Part shown: piece after piece, positions 45,919 to 59,206 of the stretch
Layout of the letters: each line of letters begins with the position of its first letter
How positions within the stretch are numbered: position 1 is the first letter of the stretch
Source: Caldilineae bacterium
GTDB taxonomy: Bacteria > Chloroflexota > Anaerolineae > DUEN01
Length of the DNA stretch: 64,000 nt
Direction of reading: 5' to 3'
Assembly (NCBI GenBank): GCA_011176545.1
Contig: DUEN01000021.1
Span: 8,662 to 72,661, forward strand
Notes under the pieces: generated by a model
What the model was told of the DNA's origin: nothing
Database searches by the model: none
What the model saw: only the letters and a program-made list of their open reading frames with translations
Made by a program: the position numbers and the translations under genes

Positions 45919-47796
45919 TTAGGGTGCTTCGCCTTCAGCGGGACGCGTCGCCTGAGGTGATGGCTCCACCACAGGTTGCGCGGGCGCCCGACGATCGTAG
46001 TAAAGTAGGTAGACGCGATCGATCAGGGTATTTACCTCGGACTCGAAGCGAATCCACTGATCCTCGGCCTGGATCCGGGCTGACGTGATCCATCTCGCCG
46101 CATCCAATTGCTGCCACGTCGGACCAAAGGAGCGCGCTCCAAACGCCAGGGTACCTCCCAAGAGAGCGCCACAGAGGATCAACAGGGCCCATCGCAGCCA
46201 CAACCGCCGCGTGATCCTCCCTCTCCTGCGCCACGCCGATCCACGCCATATCCCGCCCAGGGCGGCGAAGACGGCGGTGAGGAAGGAGGCGAAGAACCAA
46301 GCACCGCCTCGCACGGTGTTCACGGTATACGCATTTAACCCAGGATGGGAACGCTCCCAGGCCAGCAAGGTCACGCCGGTCAGGGAGAAGAAGATTAGCA
46401 TCCAGATGAGTACCCGTCGGAGCCAGTGTCGGGTTGCATATAAGATGGGCCACGCCGGGGTCTGAAAGCCTCCCCGGATCCCGCCCAGGATCGCCCAGAC
46501 ACCCCCGATGAGGGCGCTCCATATATAGCCTGACGCCAGTTGGGACGATCCGATGGCGGATGGATTCGATCTCGTCCACAGCGATCCCAACCATCCCAGG
46601 ATCACGCCCAGAACCCCTGCGCTCACCAGGCCAGCGAGAGGACGGAACAGATATCGATTGAGGGGAGAGGGCCTTCCCACGACGCGCAGCCGGACGGGTA
46701 TCTCGATCGGGTCCTCGGACGCGCTCGACTCCACGTAAATCCTCGCCTCATGAGGCCGCTCTCGGATAGGAAGGGCTTCCGTGTTCACCCTCACGAGGGC
46801 CTCCAAAGGCTGGCCGCTAAACGTCCGAGGCTCCACCCGCAGCCACGGAACGCTCGTCTGCAGTACGCCGAAAAGATAGCCGCGTCCCCGTCCTTTACAC
46901 ACCCGTAACGTGGCCGTTCCCGTCTGCCCGGAGAGGAGGTATCCGAAGTCAAGCTGCCTCGGCTTGATCGAAAGCCGCGGCCGGGGGACCAGGCCCGTCC
47001 CAATCAGGAAGGTCTCCAGGAGGATCCGGGGATCCGTCTCCCGCTGGCGGACGACATCGCGGGCCAGTTCCGCCAAGTGCCTGGCCCCCTGCTCATCCAG
47101 CCATCGCGCCAGCGTCCCGTTGCGCAGATGATAGATGCCATCCTCCGGATGTCGGTCCATGTGTCTGATCGCCGCCCGGACATCCCAGACTTTCTTGCCG
47201 CTTCCCAGCAGCCCGCCTGATCGGAAGATGAAAGGCTCCGACGCCCGTCGCGGCATCCATGGCCGATCACGTAACGCCGTGGCCAGGGCTTCCCGGAGAT
47301 GACGATCGGATAAGGTCGGCTCATACGAGGGTTTCATCGAGGTCACCGCTTCCGCCAGGGTATCCATCGTTACGAAATGGAACCCGGCCTCCTGATGGTT
47401 TTGCCTCTCGACATCCGACTGGGACAGGACCACCATGTGATAGATCGGGGGACGCAACGCCGGGAACCTCTCTCGCAGAAAGGACCGCAGCTCATGCGCC
47501 ACTGATCTCGCCTCCTCGGCGAGATTGGACGAGGGGATCGCCCCTCCCGAGAGGCGTCTTTTCAGCCAGGACTTACGTCGCACTCGCCAGGCACCTCCCT
47601 CCCGCCGTCGGCCCTCTATGTAGACGACGAACACGCCTTGTGGGCCGACGACGATGGCATCCGGCGCGCGACGGTGAGCATGGGGATTGGCGACGACGAT
47701 GTAGTCCTCGGGAAGAGCGTCCTCCAACAACGATATTAACAGCTCAGGAGCGGCCTTTCCGTCCTCTGCCAGCGGATCGGCCATCACCTTTGCCAT
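45919..47796 (-). CDS. Membrane protein with a degenerate NERD domain, an Ig/BACON-like domain and ~5 TMs
   Basis: LEDALPEDYIVVAN..PDAIVVGPQGVFVVYIE is NERD-like with the ExK motif lost; LDFGYL..GRGYLFG..VPWLRVEP; hydrophobic C-terminal half. Confidence 0.65.
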   Translation of the reverse strand: MAKVMADPLAEDGKAAPELLISLLEDALPEDYIVVANPHAHRRAPDAIVVGPQGVFVVYIEGRRREGGAWRVRRKSWLKRRLSGGAIPSSNLAEEARSVAHELRSFLRERFPALRPPIYHMVVLSQSDVERQNHQEAGFHFVTMDTLAEAVTSMKPSYEPTLSDRHLREALATALRDRPWMPRRASEPFIFRSGGLLGSGKKVWDVRAAIRHMDRHPEDGIYHLRNGTLARWLDEQGARHLAELARDVVRQRETDPRILLETFLIGTGLVPRPRLSIKPRQLDFGYLLSGQTGTATLRVCKGRGRGYLFGVLQTSVPWLRVEPRTFSGQPLEALVRVNTEALPIRERPHEARIYVESSASEDPIEIPVRLRVVGRPSPLNRYLFRPLAGLVSAGVLGVILGWLGSLWTRSNPSAIGSSQLASGYIWSALIGGVWAILGGIRGGFQTPAWPILYATRHWLRRVLIWMLIFFSLTGVTLLAWERSHPGLNAYTVNTVRGGAWFFASFLTAVFAALGGIWRGSAWRRRGRITRRLWLRWALLILCGALLGGTLAFGARSFGPTWQQLDAARWITSARIQAEDQWIRFESEVNTLIDRVYLLYYDRRAPAQPVVEPSPQATRPAEGEAP

Positions 47797-47894
47797 TGCC
47801 GTTACCCCGTCCCCGCCCCCTTGTGGGAGCTGTTGGGCCGGTTTGCCGATGGCTCATCGATGCGATGGGGATCTCCGCCCCCACACGGGGCTCA

Positions 47895-48947
47895 CTATTC
47901 CAACGTGACCTTCTCATCCACCAACCGTTCACGCACGAAACCACCTATAGGCACCATGCGGAAATGAGCCGCATCCAGGGCGAACTCCATATCCACGTGA
48001 TGACGGCCGGCCCGGTTTTTCTCGACGCTGAGGACGACCCAGTTACGCATGGCCTCGGCCTTCAGGGGGTTATATATTAGGTGCTCGCGACTGATGATGT
48101 CGTACTTGTTATTCAGCATGAGGCCGATGTCCGCCTCGTACTGCAACGCGGAGCTGCCACGCAGGTCAGATAGCCGCATGCGCTTCACCTTCAATCCCGG
48201 ACGATCCGAGGCCGCGATGGCGATGACCTGGATCCCCATCGACATGGCCAGGTCCTTCAGCCCCTGGGCCAAATAGGTCGTCACCTCCGTCTCCGGCTGC
48301 AAACTGCTCGATTCCACCGGCACCTTCTGCAGGTAATCCACCACCAACAGCAGCTCCTGCAACCCGGAGTCCAGGGCTTCCCGCACCCACTGCCGGATAT
48401 GCTCCAGTGTCGAGATCCCGCCACCGGCCTTCACCAGGATCAGGCGATCGGCATAAGCCTTCATCGCGTCGAGGAGCGGCGCGTAACGGGGGATATGCCC
48501 TAGCTTCGTGAGGAGGCCAACGCCATCGGAGCTCTCCAGCGCCAGATCGCTGAGCTTACGCAGGGTCAGCGCCCGATCCGCCTGTCCCAACTCCGCGCTC
48601 TCCAAGCATATTAAACGCAACATCAGATGGACGCGGTCATGCTCGTAACACACGTACATGGCCCCGGCGTCGGGGTGATCGCGCACGACGTTGCGAGCCA
48701 CCTGAAGGCCGAAGATGGTCTTACCTACCCCGAAGGGGCCGCCCACAACCATCAATTCGCCACGCCGCAGCCCCCCGTTGAGGACGTCATCCAAGGGAGT
48801 GAAGCCCGTGGCCAACGGCCGGAAGCGCGTCACCTCCCCACTGGCCGTCTGCTCCTCCGTCTCTTGCATCACCTGGGCCAGCGTGGCCGGCCCGATCCTC
48901 TCCCGCCCCCACGGACTGGCCCATTGTCCGCTTTCCATAAAGCCCAC
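47895..48947 (-). CDS. DnaB-like (SF4) helicase ATPase domain protein without the N-terminal domain
   Basis: TGFTPLDDVLNGGL..GPFGVGKT, LVVDYLQ, LKDLA, LSDLRGSSALQYEAD and EKNRAG; 350 aa. Confidence 0.8.
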   Translation of the reverse strand: MGFMESGQWASPWGRERIGPATLAQVMQETEEQTASGEVTRFRPLATGFTPLDDVLNGGLRRGELMVVGGPFGVGKTIFGLQVARNVVRDHPDAGAMYVCYEHDRVHLMLRLICLESAELGQADRALTLRKLSDLALESSDGVGLLTKLGHIPRYAPLLDAMKAYADRLILVKAGGGISTLEHIRQWVREALDSGLQELLLVVDYLQKVPVESSSLQPETEVTTYLAQGLKDLAMSMGIQVIAIAASDRPGLKVKRMRLSDLRGSSALQYEADIGLMLNNKYDIISREHLIYNPLKAEAMRNWVVLSVEKNRAGRHHVDMEFALDAAHFRMVPIGGFVRERLVDEKVTLE

Positions 48948-48972
48948 CTCATGCGCTTCCTAATAATCCGCC

Positions 48973-58898: not shown

Positions 58899-58918
58899 GA
58901 GCTCACGTCCTTCATCAA

Positions 58919-58947
58919 GTAGGGGCGAAGCCGCGCTTCGCCCCTAC
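58919..58947. repeat. GTAG-type REP palindrome
   Basis: GTAGGGGCGAAGCCGCGCTTCGCCCCTAC. Confidence 0.85.
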
Positions 58948-59026
58948 CGTGAAACGCAACAATAAGGCCCTCCACTACAGAGGGAATGCTTCACCCAACC
59001 ACAACAGGGTGAGTAAGAAACTTGCC

Positions 59027-59206
59027 TTACAAGCCGCCCAACGTGTCAACGATATTTTGAAAAACAGCTTCAATACTCGATTGGGTAGTCCCCAGGATTG
59101 TTATTAGGGCAAGGGCGATGAGGACGACGAGCAGGGCATATTCCACCAGGTCCTGTCCCCCTTCGCCCTTCAGCCAGTTCTTCATGCGCAGATACCAGAT
59201 CAACAT
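59027..59206 (-). CDS. flp: Flp family type IVc major pilin
   Basis: 59 aa from ATG 59206 (GAGGAGG RBS): ..EGG|QDLVEYALLVVLIA.. Confidence 0.92.
   Translation of the reverse strand: MLIWYLRMKNWLKGEGGQDLVEYALLVVLIALALITILGTTQSSIEAVFQNIVDTLGGL

Follow-up and report, generated by a model that had tools for sequence, protein, structure and literature searches.

A Tad pilus operon of Chloroflexota with two conserved, optional components, a DnaB-like ATPase and a NERD-domain membrane protein

Why should a pilus operon encode, directly behind its motor ATPase, a protein that resembles the ring domain of a replicative helicase? The question is raised by a 64,000-nucleotide stretch of a Caldilineae bacterium (Chloroflexota; assembly GCA_011176545.1, contig DUEN01000021.1, positions 8,662 to 72,661), hereafter the window, taken from the genome that we call G000. 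Thirteen open reading frames (ORFs), whose coordinates were checked, run here from 59206 to 45919, all on the minus strand, in the transcriptional order flp-tadE-tadE-tadG-cpaB-tadZ-51-aa ORF-tadB-tadC-TPR/propeller-tadA-DnaBl-NERD-TM. DnaBl is our working name for a 350-aa ATPase with a DnaB_C domain only (47895-48947), and NERD-TM that for a 625-aa protein with NERD and ASH domains and five transmembrane (TM) segments (45919-47796). Together they form a Tad (Flp, type IVc) pilus operon belonging to a Chloroflexota subtype of its own, whose novelty lies in two undescribed components that are conserved but optional. The gene content, order and single strand that had been read from the sequence in a first-pass annotation were borne out, family scans supporting the names, and so were the gaps around tadA, 34 nt to the TPR/propeller gene and 25 nt to DnaBl; a further 98 nt separate DnaBl from NERD-TM. 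The accessible text of the papers searched, including two on Tad and archaella of Chloroflexota (10.1101/2025.08.19.671072 and PMC12488501) and PMC6668835 (supplementary tables not covered), describes no DnaB-like or NERD gene in a tad locus.

A survey of gene neighbourhoods, set beforehand as the test of whether these genes belong together, showed that the order tadA-DnaBl-NERD-TM recurs in many families of the class. Neighbours were counted from tblastn matches rather than gene calls, and the two sets surveyed, a genome collection (16 loci) and a class sample (401 genomes, 57 of them with a DnaBl match, 29 loci examined with 1.5-kb flanks), overlap in some records. Within the genome collection, 11 of the 16 loci have tadA as the gene immediately upstream of DnaBl, and 9 of these 11 have NERD-TM downstream; tadE-tadG takes the place of NERD-TM in L065 and L066. 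Among the 22 class-sample loci with a DnaBl that shares 50% identity or more with that of the window, tadA is directly upstream in 21 (the exception is L075) and NERD-TM is present in 17, the five loci without NERD-TM comprising two contig ends, one intervening extra ORF, L075 and one tadE/tadG variant. Neither tadA nor NERD-TM was adjacent in any of the seven class-sample loci with DnaBl at 47% identity or less. More tadE or tadG genes follow NERD-TM on its 3' side in L058, L061, L062, L063, L069 and L109-L111. Because tadE/tadG genes thus continue downstream in several genomes, the DnaBl/NERD-TM pair is placed inside the operon.

In a tree built from 59 distinct DnaBl sequences, to which the DnaB of G000 was added as an outgroup (branch length ~10, so that the rooting is unreliable), these two situations separate. 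The free-standing DnaBl proteins form one clade of 28 rows (SH-aLRT, the approximate likelihood-ratio test, 99), and the rest of the tree is tad-linked apart from two non-adjacent exceptions (L075 and L059). Adjacency to tadA changes three times on this tree, compared with about 20 times when labels are shuffled, and the position of tad-linked DnaBl, directly after tadA, is constant across at least nine families. The tadA-DnaBl linkage is therefore real for one DnaBl clade. The immediate neighbours of free-standing DnaBl are, in two families, FtsH, an M20 dipeptidase, a DnaJ-domain protein or pyrophosphatase, HAD and ThpR, and in other families a LysM protein with TypA, or a histidine kinase. 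Of 20 such loci (from few families, a handful of independent cases), 15 have tad-like genes no more than 10 kb away, with a whole tad operon 2 kb away in L053 and flp-tadE-tadE-x-cpaB directly downstream in L052; tadA itself lies within 10 kb in one of the 20 (L053), being otherwise usually on another contig or megabases away. A conserved tad linkage of the free-standing clade was thus considered and rejected, its immediate neighbours being non-tad genes and tadA being distant, and the nearby tad-like genes are a hint only. In a phylum sample, TadA (E ≤ 1e-80) was found in 35 of 37 DnaBl-positive genomes versus 152 of 264 others, a comparison of little weight as the genomes are related; the overall tally of 187 of 301 includes G145, G173, G272 and G227, none with DnaBl.

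The operon also departs from the usual gene order, as had been claimed. In all eight Chloroflexota Tad loci without DnaBl that were chosen for a strong TadA match, the order is tadZ-tadA-tadB-tadC and both the TPR-propeller gene and NERD-TM are missing; in every tad-linked DnaBl locus with sufficient flank it is tadZ-tadB-tadC-TPR-propeller-tadA. The TPR/propeller gene is the constant partner of the relocated tadA, and the two genes at the operon's 3' end are not constant. TPR-propeller-tadA-NERD-TM-tadE without DnaBl is found in four genomes, three of them from a single genus, tadA-DnaBl-tadE-tadG without NERD-TM in L065, L066 and L089, and the subtype order tadB-tadC-TPR-propeller-tadA with neither add-on in the window's own genus and family, where DnaBl was found in none of six family genomes. 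With three variant layouts lacking one or both, DnaBl and NERD-TM are conserved, optional add-ons at the 3' end of the operon.

The window operon is closer to that of another family (L056: TadA 81%, TadZ 65% and TadC 70% identical) than to that of its own genus (L119: 67%, 33% and 47%), and G000 contains one TadA match at E ≤ 1e-80. These sequence identities point to horizontal transfer, by replacement, or to a mis-binned contig; frequent transfer of Tad systems is described in the available text of PMC6668835. Some related loci show further variation. L114 (G621:C61) has two NERD-TM paralogues (300-2111 and 7158-8456), positioned after DnaBl and between tadC and the TPR-propeller gene. A canonical-order locus (L104, G002:C324, 8819-11485) has tadA twice in tandem, the copies sharing 67% and 69% identity with the window TadA. 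In L056 (8027-9604) an ORF with a weak XAC2610-related match separates DnaBl from NERD-TM, and in L057 (11116-12642) such an ORF comes just after NERD-TM; their lengths are 508-525 aa.

What kind of ATPase is DnaBl? Residues 22-330 match positions 157-431 of the DnaB profile TIGR00665 at 80.2 bits (cut-off 385.25), and the alignment to DnaB starts at DnaB residue ~151-181. Only ~20-40 residues precede the linker helix, so that the N-terminal primase-binding helical domain is absent. A true DnaB of 455 aa (592.5 bits) is encoded separately on a different contig of G000, and DnaBl is therefore not the replicative helicase. Homologues number 874 as 90% clusters and form 155 clusters at 50% identity (E ≤ 1e-30). 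Most of the latter that are listed have 320-370 aa, and some listed cluster members are fragments or carry N-terminal extensions. The 119 matches listed below the window protein share 64-73% identity, the named ones being from Anaerolineae, Ardenticatenaceae and Chloroflexota, and precomputed annotations of the homologues include Pfam PF03796 (DnaB_C) and PF06745 (KaiC). No longer fused form was found at E ≤ 1e-20, which is weak evidence. An 800-aa TadA-DnaBl "fusion" in L064 (186-2588) was set aside as an artefact, its junction consisting of unknown residues from masked or gap bases.

The catalytic residues of DnaBl are well preserved. The protein has a Walker A motif (GVGKT at residue 73), a Walker B motif (VVDYLQ at 202), an LSDLRG loop (259) and K310/R312; an 85-sequence alignment shows no variation at G75, D204 (Walker B), K231, D273, K310 and R312, and hardly any at K76 and T77 (Walker A) or at R256. 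Comparison of profiles with the genome's own DnaB (hhalign probability 99.6) shows that the KxR finger is retained. In the H4 region LSDLRGSSALQYEAD of DnaBl aligns with LSDLRESGSIEQDAD of DnaB, its Arg being nearly invariant. The H3 motif of superfamily 4 (SF4) helicases, SQLSR, reads AASDR in DnaBl (consensus AAAD), with loss of the Gln, the residue that couples ATP to DNA in these helicases. The AlphaFold model (mean predicted local distance difference test, pLDDT, 93) is matched to the C-terminal domain of DnaB, linker helix included (Foldseek E 3e-18), with VIA Z scores of 31.5 for single-stranded DNA (ssDNA)-bound DnaB, 31.2 for the G40P ATPase domain, 27.0 for T7 gp4, 23.9 for RadA and 21.7 for KaiC. 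KaiC_arch models and KaiC structures in the PDB match DnaBl only at residues ~32-110, the Walker A part. DnaBl is thus an SF4-type ATPase domain without the N-terminal domain of the replicative helicase, and it is probably ring-forming and catalytically competent.

NERD-TM comprises a NERD-like part (~16-177), a helical domain (189-267), an ASH/PapD-like Ig domain (275-373), five TM segments (378-563) and a C-terminal helix ending in a conserved YDRRAP motif, and its model (pLDDT 83) shows the NERD-like alpha/beta fold, the helical domain, the Ig-like sandwich and five hydrophobic helices in the same places. Of 157 homologues found, 120 are listed and many of these are marked with PF08378, and the N-terminus (1-177) matches that of MAD6 (E 5.5e-10, 38 bits, cut-off 460). 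The catalytic motif of NERD nucleases is of the PD-(D/E)xK type. The NERD part (residues 1-185) contains no invariant column in an alignment of 50 homologues, with L28 alone nearly invariant; the ExK equivalent is H/Y..K/R-D-W in most homologues and IEGR in the window, and the position of the catalytic acid varies. Some homologues, of 441-475 aa, have no NERD domain (one such cluster has 12 member sequences). Degenerate, the word chosen in the first-pass annotation, is accordingly a fair description of this domain as judged from the alignment. Conservation is best in residues 186-373 and not in the NERD domain, and peaks in 186-279, where P188, F189, F191, R192, H223, L224, W232, E261 and P279 are invariant. 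The Ig domain matches PapD-like, ASH and MSP domains in a structure search of the model, and the middle part matches DUF5717_N and modules linked to Ser/Thr kinases in ESM Atlas, with lead-level scores only. The first ~380 residues are predicted to be cytoplasmic because a signal peptide is absent. In the model, the conserved part looks like a protein-binding module on a membrane anchor.

What, then, might DnaBl do beside TadA? We tentatively prefer the reading, to which we give somewhat less than an even chance, that it serves the TadA motor as a secondary ring ATPase, comparable to FlaH/ArlH of archaeal relatives. DnaBl subunits would be joined into a ring by the DnaB-type linker helix and by the invariant Lys/Arg finger that each neighbour contributes, and would act at the cytoplasmic face, tuning or gating the TadA hexamer (assembly versus retraction, timing or force). 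NERD-TM would serve as a membrane-anchored scaffold through its conserved helical and ASH domains and not through nuclease chemistry, and the TPR-propeller protein may anchor the machine to the wall, the envelope having no secretin. The tight, near-invariable tadA-DnaBl junction suggests a shared complex. Archaeal precedent exists: the available text of PMC6668835 derives Tad from archaeal Epd pili, and describes these closest archaeal relatives of Tad as having two platform genes, a major ATPase and then the RecA-superfamily protein FlaH. An ArlH hexamer is docked below ArlI, whose stimulation requires it, as described in the accessible part of PMC12024892, an archaellum review in which type IV filament systems other than archaella are said to lack an ArlH homologue.

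Several points weigh against a role of DnaBl as a secondary motor ATPase. By sequence and fold the protein is much closer to the DnaB type (SF4) than to the KaiC/FlaH type, and to our knowledge all SF4 proteins characterised so far travel along nucleic acid. The subtype can do without the add-ons, and the free-standing sister clade implies that the DnaBl family is not bound to TadA by necessity. Co-transcription is suggested only by short gaps and the lack of strong terminator-like sites, and contact of DnaBl with TadA or NERD-TM is presumed. DnaBl has a full catalytic set, while ArlH autophosphorylates and its ATP hydrolysis has not been demonstrated, according to the available text of PMC12024892. 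A complex prediction with one copy each of TadA and DnaBl scored 0.00 in two runs, which is not evidence either way.

The helicase fold invites a second explanation, in which DnaBl is a pilus-coupled ring translocase of ssDNA for DNA uptake or cell-to-cell transfer. The Tad pilus would capture or contact DNA or a cell, and DnaBl, anchored by NERD-TM, would pull or push ssDNA over the membrane, with the genome's ComEC or through the 5-TM protein, in a role like that of ComFA in Firmicutes. We consider this the main rival, somewhat less probable than the first reading. The likeness to ssDNA-bound DnaB and to the genome's own DnaB, the nearly invariant Arg of the H4 region and the intact Walker motifs and arginine finger all speak for it, yet the H3 Gln is lost. 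The nuclease-related domain encoded next door would also fit, except that its catalytic positions are not conserved, some homologues have no such domain, and the NERD half is predicted to be cytoplasmic, where it would be unable to trim incoming DNA outside the cell. Flp-pilus-dependent transformation is reported for Micrococcus luteus in the available text of PMC4322843, and G000 encodes a ComEC elsewhere in the genome (224.6 bits, cut-off 190); however, ComEA, ComEC and DprA were found in none of the operons examined (no genome-wide search for ComEA, DprA or ComFA was made), either DnaBl or NERD-TM may be lost singly, and the free-standing sister clade has no DNA-uptake context. A ComFA/ComEC-independent ssDNA conduit at the foot of the Tad pilus of monoderm Chloroflexota, formed by the SF4 ring ATPase and the 5-TM protein, which would pump DNA through the membrane as an uptake or cell-to-cell transfer apparatus of a kind not known before, appears unlikely. 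Of the Tad-coupled system proposed in the first-pass annotation, for DNA handling or as a second motor, the linkage to the tad operon stands, and an obligate DnaB-NERD pair for DNA handling is weakened because the two genes are singly dispensable, a sister clade lies outside tad operons and a canonical ComEC is encoded elsewhere.

Alternatively, the pair could be a passenger module at the tad 3' end without mechanical coupling, of a defence or stress-sensing type, for example against pilus-dependent phages. Weak matches to the MADS anti-phage system (the MAD6 N-terminus in NERD-TM and mad8, E 2.3e-4, in DnaBl) first suggest this, as do the patchy distribution, in which each gene is lost alone, the greater closeness of the window operon to that of another family and, as a lead only, the likeness of the NERD-TM middle domain to modules fused to Ser/Thr kinases. 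MAD6, MAD7 and MAD8 are the mandatory components of MADS in the descriptions available; the MAD6 score of NERD-TM remains far below its cut-off, and no methyltransferase, nuclease or other MADS gene was found at the locus. A site fixed after tadA and often before tadE/tadG in at least nine families is more orderly than defence islands normally are, and the high conservation of DnaBl among the matches listed also argues against a passenger, which we judge improbable. That the adjacency is owed to chance, assembly or binning is very improbable indeed. G000 consists of 239 contigs with 5.6% estimated contamination, and DnaBl was found in none of six genomes of its own family, but the same order occurs in dozens of other genomes, and contigs from two further sequencing runs (X2 and X3) bridge both the NERD-TM/DnaBl and the DnaBl/tadA junctions. 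Since these independent contigs span both junctions, the arrangement is not an assembly chimera.

The remaining genes of the operon, all on the minus strand, support its assignment to Tad. A promoter-like site (59904-59933, minus strand; TTGACA-18-TATATT, 11 of 12 consensus positions, with TG), recognised by consensus match only, precedes flp (59027-59206). Flp-type pilins are short and carry the processing motif G/xxxxEY; the 59-aa flp product reads GEGG QDLVEYALL, with cleavage motif G/QDLVEYALL and one hydrophobic segment, and was matched by tblastn to flp of related tad loci, with no NCBIfam family matched in the NCBIfam scan. Two tadE-like minor pilin genes follow (58515-58898, NF041390 at 25 bits, below the cut-off of 40; and 57911-58306, weak NF041390 match), both also found in related loci by tblastn, and then a tadG-like gene whose product has a TadE-like N-terminus and a VWA domain in the family scan (56717-57853). 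CpaB/RcpC (55841-56710) matches TIGR03177 above the cut-off (111.9 bits, cut-off 71), and TadZ/CpaE (54524-55789), with a receiver-like N-terminus and a MinD-type ATPase domain, has MinD/CpaE-type matches below cut-offs. The 51-aa protein (54329-54484) has two hydrophobic segments, is 52% identical to its L058 counterpart and is kept in at least one related operon.

TadB (53366-54328; weak UpsF/GspF matches and tblastn matches to related loci) and TadC (52396-53361) are adjacent paralogous multi-TM platform proteins of ~320 aa each. TadC, without a matching NCBIfam family of its own, is named as the paralogue of TadB from tblastn cross-matches. The TPR/propeller protein (50360-52234, 624 aa) is predicted to be bitopic, with a short cytoplasmic TPR part, one TM segment (~88-109), further TPR, a Pro/Thr linker and a TolB-like beta-propeller (residues 436-622 in the family scan). 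The TadA/CpaF motor ATPase (48973-50325) matches TIGR03819 just below the cut-off (350 bits, cut-off 373) and is 63-82% identical to TadA of 22 other aligned Tad loci. No ORF of the operon matched a secretin (RcpA) or a prepilin peptidase (TadV), in agreement with the first-pass annotation, a genome-wide search for the peptidase not having been made; Chloroflexota Tad systems ordinarily lack secretins, as described in the available text of PMC12488501. Upstream of the operon lie a gene for a small RseP/M50-like intramembrane metalloprotease with HExxH (60019-60597, minus strand; weak, below cut-off) and a divergent gene for a CRP/FNR-family regulator (61048-61716, plus strand), and from these family resemblances either product could bear on pilin processing or regulation.

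Several intergenic spaces contain palindromes. Behind flp (58919-58984, minus strand) lie a terminator-like stem (58968-58984) and a palindrome resembling repetitive extragenic palindromic (REP) elements (58919-58947). REP-like palindromes of the form GTAGGGGCG..loop..CGCCCCTAC occur in intergenic spaces at 52286-52316, 58351-58378, 58919-58947 and 14657-14684. Three belong to the tad operon: one follows flp, one separates the two tadE genes, and one stands in the gap from tadC to the TPR-propeller gene. A pattern search returned three sites, each on both strands, with 0 expected by chance; the copy near 52300 is outside the search pattern. That copy lies in the 161-nt spacer between tadC and the TPR-propeller gene (52235-52395, minus strand), which holds two perfect palindromes, one of them a dispersed repeat according to metagenome contigs. 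Because the depth of these contigs jumps 10-20x at 52270-52329, where loose ends are also numerous, the palindrome near 52300 is taken to be a dispersed element.

At the other end, a perfect sigma-70 consensus (TTGACA-16-TATAAT, 12 of 12 positions, consensus match only; 45853-45880, minus strand) lies just 3' of the NERD-TM stop codon. As a sequence match, it likely starts the next unit, a gene for a 1536-aa secreted protein (41025-45635, minus strand) with a weak subtilase/mycosin-like (S8-like) N-terminus and a C-terminal DNRLRE domain (108 bits, cut-off 34), which had no match beside related tad loci. The end of the operon is placed at 45919 because this consensus precedes a protein unmatched in related loci. 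Further on, a 791-aa multihaem cytochrome (38525-40900, plus strand) has an NrfH/NapC-like N-terminus followed by ~four near-identical Pro/Thr-linked CxxCH-module repeats (IPHPLEGREDCLICHAV...).

Tad pili have a single motor, TadA/CpaF, and the CpaF literature is still asking how it can drive both extension and retraction. In the present operons nature provides a widely conserved bacterial Tad subtype with a second ring-type ATPase encoded beside the motor, and sister operons without DnaBl, without NERD-TM or without both provide a comparative series for the role of that ATPase. Should DnaBl move DNA, it would offer a mechanistic link between Tad pili and gene transfer in a phylum abundant in sediments and wastewater, and an example of an SF4 helicase domain outside replication.

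Compared with known systems, the pair falls short of the MADS anti-phage system, failing family-level MAD6 and MAD8 scores, and other components were not found. NERD proteins (PF08378, and the MAD6 N-terminus) share a ~170-residue N-terminal match with NERD-TM, in which, unlike in them, the D/ExK positions are unconserved and the domain is fused to helical and ASH-like domains and five TM segments. The Tad-like loci of actinobacteria in helicase/secretion neighbourhoods (TIGR03819, TIGR03815 and TIGR03816) are matched by the window TadA, TadZ and TadG, all below cut-offs. Like the window, these loci of monoderms combine a TadA-family ATPase, CpaE-like and TadE-like proteins near a helicase, according to NCBIfam. 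The helicase of the TIGR03819-type neighbourhood is a DEAH-box protein, not an SF4 protein. With DnaB and phage G40P, DnaBl shares the RecA-type C-terminal domain with its linker helix, both Walker motifs, the KxR finger and the sequence of the H4 region; it differs in having no N-terminal primase-binding domain, in the loss of the H3 Gln and in the location of its gene in a pilus operon. The Tad/Flp (type IVc) systems of Caulobacter (Cpa) and Aggregatibacter (Tad) have in common with the window Flp, TadE/TadG-like proteins, CpaB, TadZ, TadB, TadC and TadA on one strand; in the window, unlike in these systems, no secretin, TadD or prepilin peptidase was matched within the operon, tadA comes after tadB-tadC, a TPR/TM/TolB-propeller gene is inserted, and DnaBl and NERD-TM are added at the 3' end. 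From FlaH/ArlH, DnaBl is set apart by being far nearer to DnaB than to KaiC (Z 31.5 versus ~21.5), by being ~100 residues longer than one matched FlaH-like entry (2dr3, 247 aa), by keeping the DnaB-type arginine finger and by occurring in an operon that also has TadZ. Like FlaH/ArlH, it is a P-loop protein of the RecA superfamily, encoded right after the main ATPase that follows the platform genes.

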